A stretch of DNA of 55,466 nucleotides, the filler included, from Basidiobolus ranarum (taxonomy: Eukaryota): the NCBI GenBank assembly GCA_040143965.1. It is 5 parts of 5 records of this genome, joined end to end, with 100 filler letters (N's around TTAATTAATTAA, not from the genome) between each part and the next. Parts side by side here need not be neighbours in the genome. Positions count along the whole stretch, not along the records: positions 44,472 to 55,466 come from JASJQH010007524.1; 4 more parts are not named here. One strand, given 5' to 3'. Under the pieces are notes generated by a model. The model saw only the letters and a list, made by a program, of their open reading frames with translations. It did not search any database and was not told the DNA's origin. Position 1 is the first letter of the stretch. Each line of letters starts with the position of its first letter. Of this stretch, positions 11,037-55,466 are shown one piece after another. A program made the translations under genes and the position numbers.

Positions 11037-11136
11037 NNNNNNNNNNNNNNNNNNNNNNNNNNNNNNNNNNNNNNNNNNNNTTAATTAATTAANNNNNNNN
11101 NNNNNNNNNNNNNNNNNNNNNNNNNNNNNNNNNNNN
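11037..11136. other. Artificial contig linker N44-TTAATTAATTAA-N44
   Basis: Identical 100-nt spacer with a six-frame stop; occurs four times. Confidence 0.99.
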
Positions 11137-22156: not shown

Positions 22157-22256
22157 NNNNNNNNNNNNNNNNNNNNNNNNNNNNNNNNNNNNNNNNNNNN
22201 TTAATTAATTAANNNNNNNNNNNNNNNNNNNNNNNNNNNNNNNNNNNNNNNNNNNN
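22157..22256. other. Artificial contig linker
   Basis: N44-TTAATTAATTAA-N44. Confidence 0.99.
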
Positions 22257-29847: not shown

Positions 29848-31407
29848 ATGGATTCCACAGGAATACAAAATATACCCACACCTCGTGGAGGTGCTTCCCT
29901 CATAGTAGCCTGGAGATGCCAAAAGCGCCAGATATTAGTGATTGGAAACGGTTCAGTCGCGGCCAGTCGAGTCTACTCTTCTCTAGATGCTGATGCAGAA
30001 GTTACTTTGATCTCACCAAAGGTAGGGATGAATCATGAATTATCAGTCCGTATCGAACGGTCAGAGATTACTTGGTTCGATCGAGAGTTTGAAGAGTCCG
30101 ACTTGGTAGGCAAGGACATGGTGTTGGTAACCTTGGAGGACCGAGTTAAATGTGAACAAATCGCCAGTTTATCTAAGGAACATAAAATCCCCATCAATGT
30201 TGCTGATATGAATGATCTTTGTGATTTCTGGTTTATGTCTACTTATCGGGATCAATCTTTACAATTGGCGGTTTCTACTAATGCTCAAGCACCCAAACTA
30301 GCTAATCGTCTTCGTAGGCATTTGGTTAGCTCGTTGCCGGATGGTATAGCTGATGCCGTTCAGAAGGTGGGTATACTACGCCAAAAAATTCGGGATTCTG
30401 ATCCCTCGATCTTATCTAGATCAAGACGTATGCATTGGTTGGCACAGCTTTGTGAGTATTGGCCACTTGAGCGCCTATGTCAGCTATCCGAAGAAGAAAT
30501 CGAGAGTCTGCTTGAGAGCTACAAAGTAGATGAAGGCTACAAAAGTGGTAGCGGTGATGAGTGTGACTTATTAACCGATGTCAAGACTCTAGCCCACCTT
30601 CCTGCAAGGCCCGATAAGAAAGGTCGAATTAGATTGGTTGGCGCTGGCCCTGGTAATCCCGACTTTTTGACTCGTGCCGCTTACGAAGCCATTACCACAG
30701 CTGATGTTGTTCTGGCAGATAAATTAGTTCCAGAAGATATTATTAAACTCATTCCCAGTGAAGTGAAGATCGCCCGCAAGTTTCCTGGAAATGCTGACCA
30801 AGCGCAAACCGAGATGAATTTGGCCGGAGTGGAACTTTTAAAGAAAGGGAAGAACGTAGTTAGATTGAAGTGTGGTGATCCATTCCTTTTCGGACGTGGA
30901 GGTGAAGAGGTTTTATTCTTCCGTAAATATGGTTTCGAGGCGGAAGTTATCCCTGGTATTTCTAGTTGTATGGCTGCTCCACTTCTCGGCGGTATTCCGG
31001 TTACTCATCGTGGTGTTGCCAATCAATTCATGGTTGCCACCGGAACTGGAAAGAACTGTACACTACCAGACATTCCGCCTTATTCATCCATTCGTACAAC
31101 TGTCTTCCTAATGGCTATTCACCGTTTACCTTTAATCATCGAAGACTTGATCACACACGGTTACCCAGCTGATTGTCCGGTTGCTATTGTTGAGCGAGCA
31201 AGCTGTCCAGATCAAAGGGTTCTTCGTGGCACTATCAACACTATTTGTGAAATTGTGAAGCGCGTAGGCACTACACCCCCCGGTACTTTAATTGTTGGCC
31301 AAGCAGTTAACGCTCTAGTTAATAACGTTGATGAGATTGTTACAGAAACCAAATCTAGCTACCCACTTCTTGGACTACATGAGCCCGAGTCTATTGGATG
31401 TAATTAA
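29848..31407 (+). CDS. MET1: Uroporphyrinogen-III C-methyltransferase / siroheme synthase (Met8/CysG-B-like N-terminus plus SUMT C-terminus)
   Basis: ILVIGNGSVA NAD-binding motif, INVAD..LCDF, LAVSTN; LVGAGPGNPDFLT, VVRLKCGDPFLFGRGGEE, IPGISS, GIPVTHRGVA. Confidence 0.93.
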   Translation: MDSTGIQNIPTPRGGASLIVAWRCQKRQILVIGNGSVAASRVYSSLDADAEVTLISPKVGMNHELSVRIERSEITWFDREFEESDLVGKDMVLVTLEDRVKCEQIASLSKEHKIPINVADMNDLCDFWFMSTYRDQSLQLAVSTNAQAPKLANRLRRHLVSSLPDGIADAVQKVGILRQKIRDSDPSILSRSRRMHWLAQLCEYWPLERLCQLSEEEIESLLESYKVDEGYKSGSGDECDLLTDVKTLAHLPARPDKKGRIRLVGAGPGNPDFLTRAAYEAITTADVVLADKLVPEDIIKLIPSEVKIARKFPGNADQAQTEMNLAGVELLKKGKNVVRLKCGDPFLFGRGGEEVLFFRKYGFEAEVIPGISSCMAAPLLGGIPVTHRGVANQFMVATGTGKNCTLPDIPPYSSIRTTVFLMAIHRLPLIIEDLITHGYPADCPVAIVERASCPDQRVLRGTINTICEIVKRVGTTPPGTLIVGQAVNALVNNVDEIVTETKSSYPLLGLHEPESIGCN

Positions 31408-33270: not shown

Positions 33271-33370
33271 NNNNNNNNNNNNNNNNNNNNNNNNNNNNNN
33301 NNNNNNNNNNNNNNTTAATTAATTAANNNNNNNNNNNNNNNNNNNNNNNNNNNNNNNNNNNNNNNNNNNN
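33271..33370. other. Artificial contig linker
   Basis: N44-TTAATTAATTAA-N44. Confidence 0.99.
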
Positions 33371-44371: not shown

Positions 44372-44471
44372 NNNNNNNNNNNNNNNNNNNNNNNNNNNNN
44401 NNNNNNNNNNNNNNNTTAATTAATTAANNNNNNNNNNNNNNNNNNNNNNNNNNNNNNNNNNNNNNNNNNNN
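44372..44471. other. Artificial contig linker
   Basis: N44-TTAATTAATTAA-N44. Confidence 0.99.
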
Positions 44472-47400
44472 GAATGACTGTCAAATAGCTTGCGGCCATC
44501 ATTTCAACAGACTCAAAGGATGCAGATGTACCCAGAGTTGGGTCGCTAATCGAATAAAGGGTGTGGTGCATATATTTACGTAGTAATTCAAAGTAGCTTG
44601 ATAATCCGGTGACACAATGCATGATAAACATAGGCACACTTGAAGATTTGCATACTAGCGATACGCACTCATCCAGAGCGGATGATGGTAATGTTGTAAC
44701 GTTTGATGAGTGCTTTTCTTCAGATTCATCAGAGCCTATCAGGCCTCTTGCAGGTGGGGGCAGGGTTGAATACGAATCGTTGCTAGGAATAATTACTTCC
44801 TCTTTACATATGGATACAATCGCATCTATCATTGTCGCTTCCCAGGAATCCAGTAAAGTTTGCACCTGTAGTTCAGAGTGCAACTCATGACTATAAACTA
44901 CAGTAGTCTCAAGCTGCTCATCTACGTGTTTCGACACGCAGTTGAAAATCTGCTGACGTATCCATTCTGGTGTGACACTTTCCAAGTCAAAGTTGTATTT
45001 TGAGTCAGATGAGATTGGCTGCAATAAGTTGTTGTTCTCTAACTTCAACGATTTTGGCATGTATGCTAAGGAAATTTGAAGAGGGTCATGATCAAACTCA
45101 CCATTGGTATTGCTCACGTATCGCAGAAGACCATATGCTACTTCATTTCCTTGAATTTGATGCCTTTTTGCCACAGTTTGTCGAATTACATCAAGAATGG
45201 TATCTTGTGATGAGATTGAAACAGATACAGGATAGATATTGGTGAACCAGCCTACAGTTCTGGAAATATCAATACTGTTATCCCAAGCTTGGCGACCGTG
45301 AGATTCTAAAGCTACGGAAAATACTTTTTTTCCAAACACAGAGCAAAAAGAGTATGCTAAAGACGCAAGAAGTAGGTCCTGGATAGTCACAGTGGTTGAG
45401 TGATCACAATAACTGGAAGCTAGTTTGGAGAAATACGAGTCTAGTTTGAAGGAAAGGGAGCAAGAGGTGCCAACCGTATTTTTGGCGAGTAAAGTAGGAT
45501 CAGAGCATAATGGCTCACTAACGGGTTGCTTTGGCCAAGAGTTACTATTGAGATTATGGCCATAAGCAGCAAGCATTTTACTCCATTTCATGAATGACAT
45601 TGATCTATAGTTGCATTCTCTTCCCTGGAGCAGCTGTTCAAGATCATCCCAAATAATTCGCCAGGACAACAAATCAATAATGTAGTGATGAGCAGTCATG
45701 AAGATCAACTGTTCTCCATCATCAAAGTCGTATAAAGCGAACTGGAACAAGGGTCCAGCTACAATATCAAGGCTATGTTGAAGTTGGTGAATATGCGCTT
45801 GAACCTCGTGAGCTGCTTTTACGTGGCTATGATGTACCTCATACACCAACCCGGTTGAAGGATACACTTTCAATTCCCAATTCTCATTCGTATATGAGAA
45901 ACGGGCACGAAGTATATCATGCTTTTTGACTAGTCGATGTATAGATTTAGCCAAATTACTCTTGCTAATTCGTTCACGAACTTGAAGAAGCCAAGCCTGA
46001 TTGAAGTGATTTACATTGGTTTGCTTCATTCCCAAAAACATACGCTGATTAGGGGTAAGAAGAACTGGTCCTTCGACATCATCATCCATCAAATCCTCGG
46101 TAATGTTGGGTTGTACGAGCTCCGCAAGCTTTCCAATAGTCTGATGCTGCAAGATGGTTTGTACAGAGATATACATGTCTAATTTGCGACAAAGGGAGGA
46201 AACTTGAATCGCAAGAATGGAATCTCCTCCAAGACTACGGAAACTTTCATTGATGCCGATATTCTCCTGAGGACAGTTAAGGACTTCCGACCAGATCTTC
46301 TGAATATGACTTTCGACTGTAGTGCGAGGTAGAATCCGATTAGTATTGCGCGAAAGTCCTAAATTCGCTAACGTTTCGAAACTAAGTCTCTCAAACAATA
46401 CACCGAGCAACTTCCGATCGACTTTCTCGCTAGAGTTAGTTGGCATTCTATTTAAAGGTAGCCATACGGTGGGTACCATGTAATGCGGTAATCTAGTCTC
46501 AACAAGGATTCGAATTTCTTCAATATAAGTCGAAAGACGGCTGTCGCGCAATATTTCTACGTCCAGGCATTGTTCAGTCATCTCTTTGAAAGAAACAAAG
46601 GCCACCAGCGCCTTACGATTGGAGCTTTTATCGACTACTAAGGGTAGAGTACACGCTCGGGAGACTTTAGGATGCTCATGTAGAACATGATCGATCTCGT
46701 CTAACTCAATACGCAAGCCATTTAGCTTGATCTGGTTGTCTTTTCTTCCGATCAGCTCGACCGAGCCATCCGCATTGAAGTGTGCCATATCACCTGTACG
46801 ATACATGCGCCCACCGTTACCAAATGGATTTTTGACAAATGCTGCTTCAGTAAGGTCAGGTCTGTTTAAGTACCCACGAGCAAGCTGTGGGCCAGATACA
46901 CATAGCTCCCCTGCAACACCCATTGGCACCTGTCGTAATTCAGAGTCAACAATATGAAACATATTGAAGCCTATTGGTTTCCCAACATTGCTACAAGAAG
47001 TATTCTTATCAAGTGAGTGTTGAATTGCCACTGCAACAGCAGCTTCAGTGGGCCCATAACCATTACTTAATTGGATGTACGGAGCCCAAGTATCTCGTAT
47101 TGCCACAGTCATCATCTCACCACCAAGTTGCAGATTTTTAAGACTTGGAAGAGCAGCTGGGTGAATTTTACTAGCAATAGTAGAGGTAAGATTTGCACAA
47201 GTTACATTCATAGACTGCATGACACTTTCTAAGGTTGTGAGAAGTTCATTTTTGGACGCCATACAAACGCGAGCACCTGAAAATAGAGGAAGATATATAT
47301 CCAATACTGAAGCGTCAAAAGTATAACTCGCAAATTGCAGAAGGGAATCTTCTTCAGTCAAACTCCACACCTCTTGCTGCGCTTGAATGAAGCGGAGTAC

Positions 47401-50400
47401 TGCGGAATGCTCCAACATCACACCTTTTGGATTACCAGTAGAGCCAGATGTGTAAATAATATAGCACAAGTTCTCCGGGGTTAGATCGCTGACTACAGGA
47501 TTTTTCGATGAACGAGTTTCAATGAGCTCATGATCATTATCCAGCAATACCAGAGTATGCCCTTCGAATTTTTCTTGATGGTCACTAGTAGTCACGATTA
47601 CTGCAGCATTAGTTTCCTCCACAATGAATTTAATGCGTTCTGTAGGATTCTCAGGATCAATCGGCACATAGGCACCGCCCGCCTTTAAGACTGCTAGTAT
47701 CGTTACCATCATGCCGACTGATTTGTCAAAGCATATAGGCACCATAGATTCAGGTCTTACTCCGATGTCGATAAGATAGTTGGCCAGGCAATTAGCACGT
47801 TCATTGAGCTCTGAATACGTGATAAATTCTGTGGTACCGAACTGTACTGCTACATTATTTGGAGTACACGCTACTTGGCGCTCGAACTCGTGATGAAGAC
47901 AGGCTTCATGCAGCGGACTCCTCGATATATCGTCGGTTGAGAGAAGGTCGTCTTGCAATACGTACCTTAGATCCCCAAGTAGTGTATTGGGTTTAGCATG
48001 AACCAAATTTGTAAAAAGATTAGAGTACTCATTGGCAATAATTTTGGCATATGAACTGTTTGCGATCTTGCCACTAACATCCAAGCGATATGCTAACTTT
48101 GAGCCGTGAGGGCCAATCGATAACGCCAATGGGTACTAAAAGTGATATGTACGGATTAGCCTTCTAGGTATTAAGATTATGGAGTAAAAAAAGGTACCTC
48201 AGTAGTTTCCTCATCTTGGCAGGGAACAAGTGTTAGTCCCTTGGCATTATCCAATAGTTCGGTATCAGACGGGAGCGTTTCATTCGAGTTAGCTGGTAGA
48301 TAGTTGATGGAGGTATCAATGAGTGGGGACATCTCAGCCCAATTCTCAATGTTGCGAAGACTACTTTGCTGGTATGTGAATGTTGAGGCATAGTCTTTCT
48401 GTATCGCTTGGAGCCAGTCACGTATCGTCAAATGTTTATCATATTGAATGCGACATGGTAGCATGTTAATGCAAGGGCCTACCATCTTGTCAATACCTTG
48501 AATCTCACTATTTCTCCCATCCACCACATAACCGAAAACCATGTCCCCTGCCTGAGTGTACAATCTCAATAGAATAGCCCAAGATGCCTGAATTAAAGTG
48601 AATAGTGTCACACTAGACTGTCTAGCAAATTGCAATATCTCAGACATTGGTGTTTCAATATAACCGAAGATCCGTGAAATTTCGGAGTCCATGTGATGGT
48701 CACCTATCTTAGGAAATGGTAGACTGTCGACGAGTGCAAATTTGTCGCTCCAGAAATGTTTCTCTCTTGCAATATTTTCTGCCGTTTGATTGACCATGGT
48801 GGAAACGAAGTTTTTGAAAGGATATGTCGTTGGACGTGGTGCCATGTGGTATACGGCGTCAAAATCAGCGAGAACTATGCTCCAAGATGTTGCATCTAAG
48901 ATGGCGTGATGCCAGCTTATAATCATCTCACGGGTACCAGTGGTTGTTTCTAAGAGAGCAAATCGCATCGTTGGCTGCCCGGGAAGGAAACTATTTATCT
49001 TGTCTCTGGCCAGATAGGCTGCTCGTTCACTTAAAAGGCTGTCTTCGTCACATACGACATGGAACCAATGACGAGTATAATCTTTGATAACTATTTGAAG
49101 GAAAATCGGACAGTTCTTACGAATAATAGGATTTTCCACAAATATGGTTCGCAGGATGGGATGTTCCCTAAGAACTACTTCCCAGGCACTTTTTAGTTGA
49201 GCAATATTTGAATGGCCCAGAAGCTTGTATGTCTGCTGTACATGATAATACTCCGGGTCCTTCAACATTCCTGCGATGAGGCCTACTTGTAGATGGGTGC
49301 ATGGTAAAATGTCTTCGATCGCATTAGCATCAATATTAGCCTCAGGAAGTGTTTTATGATAAAGTAGATGGAAATCTGACTCGGATAGAGAAAGCAAAGG
49401 AAAATCACTACGAGTATGTTCATTGTGTGTGATACGCGCACAATTATCAATCAGTTTAGTCAGGTTCTCCTGCCATTTGTTGATCCACCGAGAGACAATC
49501 TCGTGGGAATGTAATGCTGTGCTAAAAACAATAGCCACCTCCAAACGGTTTCGATTTACGCCGACTGATATCTCAAACACGTGATCACGTTTCCATTCTG
49601 GCGAGATTTGGCAGGTGTCGAAGTTGAATGGATCATCCGGTTGTTGAAAGAAAGCATCTCCCTTTTCGAGTTGCTGGAAACGACCAACGTAATTAAATCC
49701 TATTTGTATTTTATCGTCCATAAGTCTATTATTTTGAGTCAAGTGGCGCAGAACTCCATAAGTAAATCCATTATTTGGAATTAGCTTTCGTAGGTCTTTA
49801 ACACTCTTGAGAGTATCAAGTGCATTATTTGTTTGCATTGGCTCTATAGTTATGGGGTAGATCGACGTGAACCAACCAACTGTTCGAGATATATCGATGC
49901 TTTCACACCAGGTTTCTCTACCATGGCCTTCCATACCGATCGTTATGGAGCTACTGTCGAACACCTGACAGTATGCTAAGGCCAGGGAGGATATCATTAA
50001 ATCTAGGGGTTCAGTTTGGAATGGACGGTTGCATAATCCAAATAGGTTGTCCGTTTTATCACGACTCAAGGAGAAAGAAAGTGCTTTTGTGGTGGACAGA
50101 AGATTTCTTTCAAGAAGAGAGCAGTCGTCAATGATCGGCTTGACCACAGGATATCTTGTCCAGGTACTCAAATCTAACGTCTGACTATAATCAGTTAGCA
50201 TTTTGCTCCACTTCATGAAGGACAGCGATTTGTAGTTGCATTCTCTGCCCTGGAGTAACTGCTCAAGATCATCCCAGATAATTCGCCAGGATACCAGATC
50301 GATAATGGAGTGATGAATAGTCATGAAGATTAACTGCTTCCCATCAGCAATGTCGTATAAAGCGAACTGGAACAGCTGCCCATCTGAGATATTAAGACCA

Positions 50401-53400
50401 CGTTTAAGTTGATGAAAATCGGAGTGAACTTCATCAGCAGACTTCATGTGATGTTGTTGTACCTCAAAGAATACTTCAGCAGGTGGTAGCACTCTAAGCT
50501 CTTGTTTCCCGCTAGCATCTAGGAAACGGGCACGAAGGATGTCATGATTCTTAATCATTTCACCTACTGCATTTTTTAGTACTTCCGAACTAGTGGGTTT
50601 TTGTAGACGAAGCAACCAAGATTGATTGAAATGATGAATATTTGTTTGCTTTTGTTCAAGGAAGTATCTCAAAATCGGTGTAAGAGGTACAGGTCCTTCA
50701 ACGTATTCCTCAAGTACATCCAACTTTGTTGTTAGTGGCGATGACACTGCAGCTAGTTCACGAATAGTAGTATTTTGCATGATTTGCTGAACACTCAAGG
50801 AAATTCCTTTTTGTCGACTTATTGAGGACACTCGAATAGCTGAAATGGAGTCACCACCCAAGTGATAAAATGGATCGTCAAGGCCTATGTTAGCAGGATC
50901 TATGTTAAGGGTTTCTGCCCAAATCTCCTGTATAGCCCTCTGAAGTTCAGTAGAGCATTCGGAAGTTTTTCTAATTGATGACCTAGATAGCGTGAGCACA
51001 CTTTCTGTACTTAACCCGGCGAAAAATACTGAGAGGCTTTTGCGGTCAATTTTGCCACTGTTGTTGCAAGGCATCCTATTTAGTGGTACCCATAAGCTCT
51101 GGATCATATATGGCGGAAGTTTCTTTGTCGCTAGACTTCTGATTTCATTTACATAAGTAGCGAGCATTGCGGAATCATTGTCTGTGACCATTCTTACAGC
51201 TTCTTCGTTGTTACTGACTCCATGGAATACCAAAAATGCCACCAACACTTTGCTCCCCGGATTAGCTTCAGTATTTAAAGGAATGATGCAAGCTCGATTG
51301 ACTTCCGAGTGCTCGTGCAATGTATGTTCAATCTCATCTAGTTCTATTCTTAGGCCACGCAGTTTGATCTGGTTATCTTTCCTACCAATTACTTCAACCG
51401 ATCCATCAATATTAAATCGAGCAAGATCACCAGTTCGATACAAACGTTCCCCAGGTTCAAACGGATTCGGTACAAAGGCTGCTGTGGTTTGTTCTGGTCG
51501 GCCAAGGTAACCACGAGCGATCTGTACTCCTGCAACACACAGTTCACCAACCACTCCAAGTGGAACTAAGCGTAGTTTTGAGTCCATGATGAAAATCTTA
51601 TTGTTACCGAGAGGTTTACCAACATTGCTACATGAAGTATCTTGGTCCAATGATTCAGTAATTAAAAATGCAACCGCAGCCTCAGTTGGTCCGTACGCGT
51701 TGCTTAGCTGAACGAGTTGTGTCCAATTATCGCGAATAGCAGCTGTCATCATCTCACCCCCAACACACAACTTACGTAAATGAGATAGGCTACCAGGGAT
51801 CAATAAACTGGCTACTGTGGGCGTAAACATTGCTGTAGTAACATTCATTTCAGAGATGGCTTCATTTAGACTCGAATGAAGAGCTGCCTTATTCGCAATA
51901 GAAGTCCGGGCGCCAAATAGCAATGGTACGTAAACTTCAATTACGAATAAATCAAAGGTGTAGCTTGCAAATTGAAGTACCGAATCATCCGGAGACAATT
52001 TCCATACCGTTTGCATACCTTCAATAAAATTAGCTACCGATCCATGCTCCAATAACACACCTTTTGGAAGTCCCGTTGATCCGGATGTATAAAGCACATA
52101 ACAAAGGTTGGACGCTGTCAGGTTGGTAATTACAGGATTTAAATCCGAGTAGTGTGCAATATCCCAATCTTCGATGATTACCAATGTCGGAATGACTCCT
52201 TCGAACTTTTGTTTGTAATGGCTATGGGTCACCACAACCTCTGCTTTAGTCTCCTTGATGATAAAGTGATTCCGATCATCTGGGTTATTAGGATCCATCG
52301 GGACGTATGCGCCACCCGCTTTGAGAATGGCTAACAGAATGACAATCATGTTGACAGATCTATCTAGACACACAGGCACCATTGTCTCGATACCTACCCC
52401 GATATCAATGAGATGGTGAGCCAGGCGATTGGCGCGGCTGTTCAACTCAGAGTAAGTCACAAATTCCTCATTCTCATACTGAACTGCGATATTGTTTGGT
52501 GTGCTTAATACTTGCTCCTCGAATAGAGTATGAAGATAACTTTCAGGGGAGCCACTGGTGACTGAACCACTCCACTGTTGTAACTGCTCATATTCAGTGC
52601 TAGAAATGATATCAAAATCATCCACGCGGGTGTCAGCATTGTCAACAATGGATGCTAAAGCAGTCTTCAGATGCTCAAATATCCATCTAGCTTCATCATT
52701 ATGCAAAACTTCCTGGTCATAAAGAATTGAAAGTTCGTGCTCATCTGACCCAGTTGCAAATTCCACCACTACAGCATAGTTGCTTGGCATATTAGCTTCT
52801 ATTATATCCAGTCCAAGTGAACTTATTTTAGGGTTCAAATCATCCAATCCAAGATTCTGTACAGCGAGGAGCGAGTCAAATAGCGTATTACCAAGCTCAC
52901 CAACACATAGTTTTTGAATATCCTGTAATCCTATGTTTTGGTAGCGGTACTGCTCCACTTGTATCTTGTACATACGAGTCATGGCTTCGAGAAGTGTAGG
53001 GTTATCTTCGAGGTCGACTCGAACAGGTAACGTGGAGATACAAGGTCCACAGATTCGATCGATTTCAGCTATAGGTACACTGCGGCCTGAATTAACAGCA
53101 CCAAATACAACATCGGAGTTTCCTGTATGGAACTTGACTACCAAAGCCCAAGCCAAATTAACTATTGTAGCTATGGTGAGGTTGTGAGTCCCCGTTAGTG
53201 ATGAGAAGTCAATCTGAATCCGTTCCTTGATGGTAGTACGAGTCAGTAACTCGTTTGAATGCGTATTTTGCTTAGATATATGTGTGGCAGAAGCTTGGTT
53301 CAGTATTTGTGACCAGTATGCTATAGATTCATCCTTATCCTGACTTATTGTATACTCGATAAAGCGTGAGTACGTGGGTCTCTTCGCCACCTGTTGCCCA

Positions 53401-55466
53401 TTATAAGCTGCAACAAGATCCTCCAAAATAAGACCCATTGACCAACCATCATAGAGTGTATGGTGAATGGTCCAAATAAAGTACGATGTAGATTCCTCGC
53501 TACGCAACACTGTGAAGCGAGTGAGAAGCTTCCCTGTCTCGATTCCACGATCCCGATCAATCTTGAGCACATTTTGTAACTCTGTATCCATATCAGCGTT
53601 AGATCGACACTCGACTTCACTCCAATCAATACTTTCACCTCCACGAACTATCTGCAATCCACTCAGATGAGAATGTCCAGAGTTAGTGAAGACAATGGTG
53701 GTACGAAGGATTGGGTTAGCTTCAATGATAGTGGCCCATGCGGCTTTGAGACAAACCGGATCAAGGCTGCTGCTACAGCGGAACACTTGCTGAGTGAGAT
53801 AATCCGAGTTTGAGCGCAACCCTAAGGCAAAGAGACCTTCTTGAAGCGGAGAACACGGGTAGATATCCTCCACATCGTCGGGTGAAATACCGTTTTGCTT
53901 AACATCCACATCCATTAGCCTCTCTAAATCTGTTTCATTTAGCTTAAGCAGTGAGTATCGCTCGATACTTGCTGCTTCAGCTATCTCACTCTCTGAGGAT
54001 TTCGCTTGTAAGGCCAATGTAGCGATAGTAGGATACTCAAATACCTGCTGAACAGTGATATTGTAGCCAAATCGACGAGCTAACGATACCAGTTTGATTG
54101 ATAGAATCGAGTCACCACCCAAGCTGAAGAATGAGTCATGGATCCCGATACTGTCCTCAGGAATATTTAGAACTGGTGACCATATCTTCACCCATCTAGC
54201 TTCTTCATCCGTCACGGGTACAGAGTCTGGACTTTTACCGATTCGACTGAATGCATAAAGACTCTCAGTGTTTGTAGTTCGCACAATGGTTTCCAGTTGT
54301 TTGCGATCTATCTTTCCACTAGTATTGGTAGGCATCTGACTGATTGGCAGGAATATATGTGGCATCATATATGGTGGTAGTCTCAGTGAAATCAAACTAC
54401 GTATTTCCGCAATCCATACAGTTCCTAACTCCAAATCCTCGATGTTGAGTATGGACACATTTGGCTTACCCGCTACCTTCTGATGGAAGTTTAGGAATGC
54501 AATCAACACCTTACGAGTGTCAGATTCATCAATATTGATTGGCAGGACACAAGCTCTGACCACTTCGGGATGCTGGTGAAGTGTATGTTCTATCTCATCC
54601 AACTCAATGCGCAGGCCATTCAACTTAATTTGACTATCGATTCTTCCCAATATTTCTACGGTGCCGTCCATGTTGAAGCGTCCCAAATCACCTGTGCGAT
54701 ACATGCGCTCTCCAGACCTGAAAGGGTTAGCCACGAATGCTCTCTCTGTAAGATCAGGTCGATTTAAGTAGCCGCGAGCTAACTGGCAACCAGTCACGCA
54801 TAGCTCACCCACTACACCAACTGGAGCTAGTCGAAGATCGGTGTCAAGGATGTAAATTTCATTACCCTTGACTGGGCGGCCAATGTTACTGCAAGATGTA
54901 TTTGAGCCAAGCTGTGAATTGACCATAAATACAACTGCTGCTTCAGTCGGTCCATACATATTACTCAAGTGTACCTTTGAAATCCATTGATTCTTGATTT
55001 CTGTAGTCATCATTTCGCCACCAACATTCAATTTGCGTAACTGAGTCGTACTTTTGGTGTCAAGTAGACTGGCCACACTTGGAGTCAACCATGCAACAGT
55101 AACATTGGTATCCAATATGACTTTGTTCAAATTGGAATGGATTGATGTCTTACTTGCCAATACAGTTCGGGCCCCAGATGATAAAGGATTGTACACCTCC
55201 ATCACAAACATATCAAAAGTATAAGTAGAAAATTGGAGAGCGCAATCATTAGGAGCTAACTGCCAAGATTCCTGTGAGGAAACAACGAAGGCAACTACTG
55301 ATTTATGCTCCAATAGCACACCTTTAGGAAGTCCAGTCGATCCAGATGTGTAAAGCACATAGCAAAGGTTGGACGCTGTCAGGTTGGTAATTACAGGATT
55401 TAAATCCGAGTAGTGTGCAATATCCCAATCTTCGATGATTACCAATGTCGGAATGACTCCTTCGAA
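44472..55466 (-). CDS. Multimodular non-ribosomal peptide synthetase fragment, (A)-T-C-A-T-E-C-A-T-E-TE; intron 48197-48136; truncated at both ends
   Basis: 3 A domains (YTSGSTGxPKG, YGPTE, YRTGD, GLRIEL); 3 T domains (LGGDSI); C domains HHTLYDG and HHAILDA; E domains HHSIID/EGHGRE/RTVGWFT and HHYIID/ESHGRQ/RTVGWFT; TE start PMFIMHCVTGLSSY...SVEMMAASY. GAG|GTACCT...TTTTAG|TAC joins the two long ORFs in frame. Confidence 0.97.
52102..52205 (-). repeat. 104-bp perfect intragenic duplicate of 55363-55466
   Basis: Base-for-base identical CAAAGGTTGGACGCTG...GACTCCTTCGAA at both loci. Confidence 0.95.

Follow-up and report, generated by a model that had tools for sequence, protein, structure and literature searches.

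A nonribosomal peptide synthetase (NRPS) gene of Basidiobolus ranarum (assembly GCA_040143965.1), ending in two modules with epimerization (E) domains and a candidate thioesterase (TE), raises the question of whether it descends from fungal synthetases, is an ACV-synthetase-like enzyme, came from bacteria or is a defunct copy. The window analysed here is a 55,466-nt stretch joined from five contigs (11036, 11020, 11014, 11001 and 10995 nt) by four 100-nt spacers, each composed of N44, TTAATTAATTAA and N44. The gene lies on the minus strand and fills the fifth contig (JASJQH010007524.1), which corresponds exactly to positions 44472–55466 (10,995 nt), holds no gene other than the NRPS and cuts it at both ends. 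Our analysis indicates that the region is very probably a contig-limited fragment of one multimodular NRPS gene of fungal type, belonging to an E-rich expansion specific to Basidiobolus.

The spliced NRPS reading frame comprises 3,644 codons with one intron in 10.9 kb and encodes the domain order (A1)-T1-C-A2-T2-E1-C-A3-T3-E2-TE (A, adenylation; T, carrier; C, condensation), in which the TE is represented by its first 54 residues (Table 1). Pfam identifies one partial AMP-binding domain and two complete A domains, AMP-binding_C, three PP-binding domains and four domains of the Condensation family, the last reaching a total E value of 7e-154 over exon 1 and of 4e-44 for the exon-1 part of the third-module C domain. 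The motifs SGSTGxPKG, YGPTE, GRxDxQxK and [GE]K[IV]DR are each found three times, GGDSI three times, HHxxxD four times, and EGHGRE and ESHGRQ once each. With collinear A, T (Ser) and C (HHxxxD) domains and Pfam scores far over the cut-offs, the protein is a type I multimodular NRPS, and Pfam, motifs and E-structure matches agree on the order (A)-T-C-A-T-E-C-A-T-E that an earlier note on this DNA had claimed. About 154 Pfam profile positions of A1 lie beyond the contig end, in line with the view of the earlier note that 5' sequence was lost at the contig break.

The two long open reading frames (ORFs) are joined by a single 62-nt intron, as had also been proposed. It is bounded by GT and AG, has a branch-like CTAAT site ~22 nt before the AG and, if retained, brings a stop after 6 codons, so that the NRPS frame stays open only if a spliceosomal intron is removed. 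Splicing restores a conserved (T/S)E(Y/F)P-L motif (TEYPL-like) of the C domain, which is also present in bacterial proteins. When 480 residues around the splice were compared with 119 other retrieved proteins, all 29 alignments that span the junction (BLASTP, best 40 of 118 matches), including those with intron-free bacterial proteins, run through it without a gap. The same splice is used by P0002, the deposited model (NCBI/UniRef, 3500 aa) of the protein of this contig.

Of the four condensation-like domains, numbers two and four are epimerization domains. The best solved matches of E2 are all E domains, namely those of PvdL (1.3e-39), BacC (bacitracin synthase 3, 2.3e-37), TycA (6.6e-32), TycB (1e-27) and GrsA (2.3e-24), whereas the true C domains of LgrA, TycC and VibH reach only 3.5e-5 to 2e-4. 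E1 aligns with the structures of the TycA A-T-E tridomain, GrsA T-E, TycA E and BacC. Both domains are nearer to E than to C structures, stand directly after a T domain and carry HHxxxD together with the Glu of EGHGRE, the catalytic His and Glu positions being kept in each. The full length of each can be aligned with the E domains of TycA and GrsA (PDB 2XHG, 5ISW/5ISX), with which both have the HHxxxD motif and the EGHGRE Glu in common, but they sit in elongation and termination modules rather than in an initiation module. From these motifs we infer that both E domains are active.

For the three A domains, the ten specificity positions were set by hand against the FD, GGE, YGPTE and GK[IV]DR motifs, which gives the putative signatures DMMWNGMVVK (A1), DLIMCGAVAK (A2) and DALNQGGVAK (A3). 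To our knowledge, none of them matches an established specificity code. Positions that we take to correspond to Asp235 and Lys517 are present in all three, pointing to alpha-amino acids as the probable substrates, with no finer call. The A10 motif of A3 reads EKVDR (spliced residue 2993) compared with GK[IV]DR in A1 and A2, the lysine being kept.

Every domain of the fragment finds its best match in a Basidiobolus protein, from either B. ranarum or B. meristosporus (47–67% identity), compared with 26–56% identity to proteins of non-Basidiobolus fungi or bacteria; the origin in an early-diverging fungus assumed in the earlier note is thereby corroborated. To place the E and C domains, quick IQ-TREE phylogenies were computed under LG+G4 from a sample that is biased towards proteins resembling the window E domain. 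In the E tree (74 rows: 2 from the window, 14 from Basidiobolus, 22 from other fungi, 23 from bacteria and 13 others), bacterial and fungal E domains are separated by a split with support of 99, and all Basidiobolus E domains, those of the window included, form one clade (99) that is sister (98) to an Ascomycota clade. Within it, E2 groups with the E domains of two B. ranarum proteins, P0123 and P0126 (100). This tree takes one E domain per named non-Basidiobolus protein, at most three per Basidiobolus protein and at most four per protein of the "other" class, and of the unnamed HMMER representatives it includes P0170 and P0195 only. In the C tree (75 rows, selected in a similar way), a split (98) divides a bacterial from a fungal side, and both C domains of the window lie on the latter, so that the fungal look attributed earlier to the C domains, based on two motifs (DIYPCSPLQEGL and HHTLYDGWS) that both lie in the first of them, extends to the pair. 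The first C domain falls in a Basidiobolus clade (97) in which every member is preceded by a T domain and whose sister group (99) consists of post-T C domains from Ascomycota. The second falls in another Basidiobolus clade (100) with 13 other members, 11 of them preceded by an E domain and 2 located at truncated N-termini. Such a placement fits a C domain for an L-configured donor followed by one for a D-configured donor.

Two further observations concern these trees. In five proteins of the Dimargaritales (P0030, P0032, P0075, P0082 and P0084, from Dispira, Tieghemiomyces and Dimargaris), the E domains lie on the fungal side and the C domains on the bacterial side, a discordance that could reflect mosaic domain origins or a tree artefact. 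P0126 is a B. ranarum protein of 901 aa encoded on a 3,004-nt contig, which limits it to (A)-T-E; its E domain is the closest to E2 of the window (53–54% identity), and it is possibly a third T-E-TE gene of the same genome.

The identity of the C-terminal tail is argued mainly through P0123, a B. ranarum hypothetical protein (K7432_000290, 1087 aa) with the order (A)-T-E-TE. It was found when E2 plus the tail served as the query in an exhaustive HMMER search over 1.84 billion representatives, and aligns to query residues 2–532 of 533 at 47% identity, the sole protein to do so among the 150 matches listed. In P0123, PF00975 matches residues 864–1068 with 98.2 bits (cut-off 26.4; E=1.1e-27), and the serine motif reads GYSFG. 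The last 143 residues of the window protein align with P0123 up to the final residue (43% identity, E=3e-36), and the final 54 residues correspond to P0123 residues 864–917, the first quarter of its PF00975 match. A profile built from 11 non-Basidiobolus NRPS TE domains gives the last 62 residues 22.8 bits over profile positions 3–61, a score reached by none of 2000 shuffles and by none of 176 further 62-residue segments of the protein (maximum 3.2 bits). In the ESM Atlas, thioesterase clusters appear for the tail at ranks 2–4 (0.85–0.79), which is a lead only. By homology, then, the tail is the N-terminus of a TE. Among the retrieved proteins, the 115-residue tail matches P0123 only; BLASTP of the tail against bacterial E-TE proteins is weak, giving E=0.22 at the right place for P0094 and no match for P0115, and a word-indexed homolog search with the tail alone found nothing at E<=10, yet this search also missed the known paralog P0123.

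Among 19 proteins whose domain strings were computed, the B. ranarum paralogs as a rule contain repeated A-T-E-C units, as exemplified by P0003 (A-T-E-C-A-T-E-C-A) and by P0004 and P0144 (both A-T-E-C-A-T-E). With all nearest relatives being Basidiobolus NRPSs and such units recurring among them, the fragment fits into an E-rich expansion of fungal type, and consecutive epimerising modules, noted earlier for this gene, are not peculiar to it but turn out to be the norm in this Basidiobolus family. P0123 resembles the fragment in its (A)-T-E-TE end and in its E domain, yet it is a separate gene at paralog-level identity, with a complete TE, with upstream modules outside its deposited model and with no known product. 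Five retrieved proteins share the ending ...A-T-E-C-A-T-E-TE, namely P0109, an NRPS of Pseudoalteromonas aurantia, the unnamed proteins P0094, P0115 and P0195 with bacterial-type E domains, and P0079. P0109 (C-A-T-E-C-A-T-E-TE) matches the window gene in how its last two modules and release domain are arranged; however, the E and C domains of bacterial NRPSs with this order lie on the bacterial side of the trees and are only ~25–30% identical to those of the window. A TE match is present in 16 of the 251 retrieved proteins, and in 6 of these 16, Pseudoalteromonas included, an E domain stands directly before the TE. E-TE termination, described earlier as the hallmark of ACV synthetase, is therefore not specific to that enzyme: given its presence in a B. 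ranarum paralog and in bacteria, the T-E-TE architecture is rare in fungi but not unique. No TE match was seen among the named non-Basidiobolus fungal proteins of the 251, which agrees with TE release being rare in fungi, although the sample is small and biased.

Of the proteins sharing the ending, P0079 comes from a eukaryotic transcriptome and, at 4556 aa, is a complete three-module A-T-E-C-A-T-E-C-A-T-E-TE synthetase in which every module is epimerising. Its E and C domains are of the bacterial type.

Table 1. Positions of the NRPS domains and other features in the 55,466-nt window.
Feature	Position	Strand	Remarks
A1, C-terminal ~60%	54282–55466	-	Pfam AMP-binding profile positions 155–384 of 384, E=3e-47; domain cut by contig end
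T1 carrier	53997–54212	-	Pfam PP-binding, E=5.6e-16
C of penultimate module, post-T type	52581–53873	-	HHTLYDG; Pfam residues 532–962
A2, complete	51027–52523	-	Pfam AMP-binding
T2 carrier	50748–50936	-	PP-binding and motif
E1, penultimate module	49422–50699	-	HHSIID, EGHGRE; Pfam E=6e-52
C of last module, post-E type	47965–49349	-	HHAILD; Pfam; split by intron
A3, complete	46390–47886	-	Pfam AMP-binding E=9.5e-82; TIGR01733 4.7e-126
T3 carrier	46114–46305	-	GGDSI serine
E2, last module	44818–46071	-	HHYIID, ESHGRQ; Pfam Condensation E=1.5e-41
E-to-TE linker	44635–44817	-	61 residues, low complexity; aligns with the P0123 linker
TE start	44473–44634	-	first 54 residues of a type I thioesterase; GxSxG serine and remainder beyond the contig
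Frame 1	48198–55466	-	2423 codons, open at contig end
Frame 2	44473–48135	-	1221 codons, running into the spacer
Intron	48136–48197	-	62 nt, GT-AG; interrupts the last-module C domain
104-nt terminal repeat	55363–55466	-	100% identical to 52102–52205 inside A2
Spacers	11037–11136, 22157–22256, 33271–33370, 44372–44471		each N44 + TTAATTAATTAA + N44
Artificial spacer at the gene	44372–44471	n/a	gene 3' end cut here; positions of N runs and linker TTAATTAATTAA
CysG-type ORF	29848–31407	+	519 codons, uninterrupted

Some observations weigh against the reading of the region as a working, TE-ended gene of the Basidiobolus expansion. PF00975, the test that the earlier note had named for its terminal TE, finds no match at E<=10 whether the final 116 or the final 62 residues are used, and its gathering cut-off is not reached by the 54 of ~225 TE residues; with so little of the domain present, this profile is a poor test of the stub, and what stands of the claim is the TE start identified by the P0123 alignment and the TE profile. 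The contig ends before the GxSxG position, so that no catalytic TE residue lies within the sequence. In both E1 (HHSIIDL) and E2 (HHYIIDL), Leu follows the HHxxxD motif, where the usual residue in E domains, as in TycA and GrsA, is Gly, and E2 has ESHGRQ in place of EGHGRE; activity of the two domains is thus an assumption. A best-match comparison across the retrieved proteins, asking whether an E domain precedes C domains resembling the second window C more often than those resembling the first, gave 145 of 199 versus 338 of 543, counts that carry no information on the point, and the C tree took its place. Finally, the exact duplicate of 104 nt at the contig end may mean that the contig end is chimeric at the upstream join of A1.

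This last point bears on the possibility of a dead or chimeric copy without a product (a pseudogene, or an artefact of assembling a repeated gene family), which we consider decidedly improbable. A contig cut at both ends, a 5' end whose 104-nt sequence recurs exactly inside the contig, the many paralogs on short contigs (3–22 kb) and E motifs slightly off the canonical form would all suit such a copy. Against it, no stop interrupts the 3,644 codons once the intron is removed, the A, T, C and E domains have all their core motifs, and A1 is a distinct copy: past the repeat, the A1 and A2 copies differ first by scattered single bases that leave the protein unchanged (first 54 residues) and then diverge fully, with an overall protein identity of 62%. 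The pattern resembles that of gene conversion, or of a recent duplication, from one module to another, and the exact intragenic repeat is most likely what lies behind the assembly break at the 5' end of the gene.

ACV synthetase (PcbAB) has the order A-T-C-A-T-C-A-T-E-TE with a single terminal E domain. A PcbAB-related enzyme would account for the terminal T-E-TE order and for a tail that reads as a TE, since in both a terminal E domain is followed directly by the TE, with the presumed logic that the last residue is epimerised and then released. However, the penultimate module of the window gene is also epimerising and is followed by a post-E C domain, so that the defining feature of ACV synthetase fails, in a protein of at least three modules with an incomplete N-terminus. 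The window E domains belong to the Basidiobolus-specific clade beside Ascomycota NRPSs with multiple E domains, and, judged by name, no ACV synthetase is among 120 relatives, the matches listed by the HMMER search or 19 TE matches. The available portion of a 2020 survey (PMC7466969) likewise has no A domain of Mucoromycota or Zoopagomycota in the ACV clade, and an ACV-synthetase-like enzyme is, in our judgement, scarcely credible. A bacterial-like NRPS, whether obtained by recent horizontal transfer in the manner of the Mortierella MpcA and MpbA synthetases or present as bacterial contamination, has more to recommend it and is still very improbable. Basidiobolus NRPSs are reportedly enriched in bacterial transfers (PMC7466969, in the part available); the A domains score about equally against bacterial proteins (246–332 bits) and non-Basidiobolus fungal proteins (241–315 bits); and the nearest long relatives of the P0123 TE are bacterial at ~30% identity (best E=5.7e-15; 19 matches in a word-limited search). 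The TE taken by itself may be of bacterial or fungal descent, the ESM Atlas listing thioesterase clusters of both Ascomycota and bacteria at 0.96. Yet the frame needs a spliceosomal intron, the GC content (0.42–0.44) is near that of the other contigs (0.31–0.43), and splits with support of 99 (E) and 98 (C) place the two domain types with the fungi, beside those of Ascomycota, which argues that the enzyme is neither bacterial-like nor of the ACV-synthetase type. MpcA and MpbA of Mortierella alpina (malpicyclin and malpibaldin synthetases) are, like the window gene, TE-ended NRPSs of an early-diverging fungus, and make D/L peptides; according to the accessible text of their description, they have bacterial-type dual E/C domains and nine introns (bioRxiv 10.1101/2020.08.21.262279), whereas the window gene has stand-alone E domains followed by separate C domains of fungal type, and one intron.

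Taking the region as a fragment of a fungal-type Basidiobolus NRPS, the domain order suggests how its product would be completed. A1, A2 and A3 would each load an alpha-amino acid onto their own carrier; the first C domain (post-T, L-donor) would join residue n-2 to n-1, which E1 would epimerise; the second C domain (post-E, D-donor) would pass the chain to residue n; E2 would epimerise this C-terminal residue; and the TE would release the peptide by hydrolysis or macrocyclisation. Two consecutive D-residues can reasonably be expected from the intact E motifs, and the C-terminus of the peptide should read ...-L-D-D. Whereas the identities and order of the domains, the intron, the fungal affinity and the tail as a TE start are shown by the analysis, E-domain activity, stereochemistry, release mode, substrates and total module number are matters of inference.

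As for the product, the metabolites characterised from Basidiobolus are limited, according to the accessible part of PMC10964425, to the basidiosins A–L and meristosporins A–C, cyclic pentapeptides that contain both D and L residues, and a proposed link of such pentapeptides to gene model 387529 needs genetic confirmation (PMC7466969, available portion). In agreement with the earlier view that no characterised product exists, literature searches gave no gene-to-product link, and in the accessible portions of the basidiosin literature no paper tying a gene to the product was found. In this genome, the small E2 clade of terminal E domains has three paralogous members, and a TE comes after the E domain in at least two. 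It is conceivable, though unlikely, that the fragment is the 3' half of a synthetase of about five modules for a D/L cyclic pentapeptide of the basidiosin or meristosporin type, and that this clade marks an NRPS family of fungal lineage which has swapped the usual fungal terminal C(T) release domain for a bacterial-type TE, epimerising the last residue and then macrocyclising.

The deposited model P0002 takes as its start an internal Met that lies 85 codons inside the open frame (region 55212–55466), and ends in "...ECVSLLL" (region 44473–44700), thereby leaving out the TE start that is supported by homology to P0123; its C-terminal end is a spurious predicted splice just before the TE stub. 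No continuation of the NRPS upstream or downstream was found among the retrieved proteins. As the window consists of joined contigs, the gene neighbourhood is unreadable across the spacers, and the other four contigs need not adjoin the NRPS in the genome; they carry eukaryotic genes, with ORFs for an aspartyl protease, an arrestin-domain protein, a RING-finger protein and a cyclin. Elsewhere in the window, one ORF encodes a fused siroheme synthase of the CysG type, with a Met8-like NAD-binding/Sirohm_synth N-terminus and a uroporphyrinogen-III methyltransferase C-terminus. It covers positions 4–449 of 450 of the bacterial CysG model with 299 bits, under the equivalog cut-off of 400, and may be a horizontally acquired or, for a fungus, unusually fused gene.

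The available text of PMC7466969 describes NRPS expansion in B. meristosporus and B. heterosporus, much of it ascribed to bacterial transfer, with the fungal SIDE clade also expanded. With that expansion of the genus described in 2020 and the gene itself already in NCBI/UniRef as a 3500-aa protein, the gene is not unseen: it is a truncated, deposited and uncharacterised member of the known Basidiobolus NRPS expansion, with an ending that is uncommon for fungi. Basidiobolus is the richest known NRPS reservoir of the early-diverging fungi, with cyclic D/L pentapeptides that lack proven genes (PMC10964425 and PMC7466969, as far as their accessible portions go). Within this reservoir, the fragment and its paralog indicate that part of the expansion is fungal in descent, not bacterial, and that this part carries stand-alone E domains in consecutive modules and a T-E-TE end, which in fungi is otherwise tied to ACV synthetase. 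Although it implies no new mechanism, this part of the expansion is a reasonable place to look for the genes behind the known peptides of the genus.

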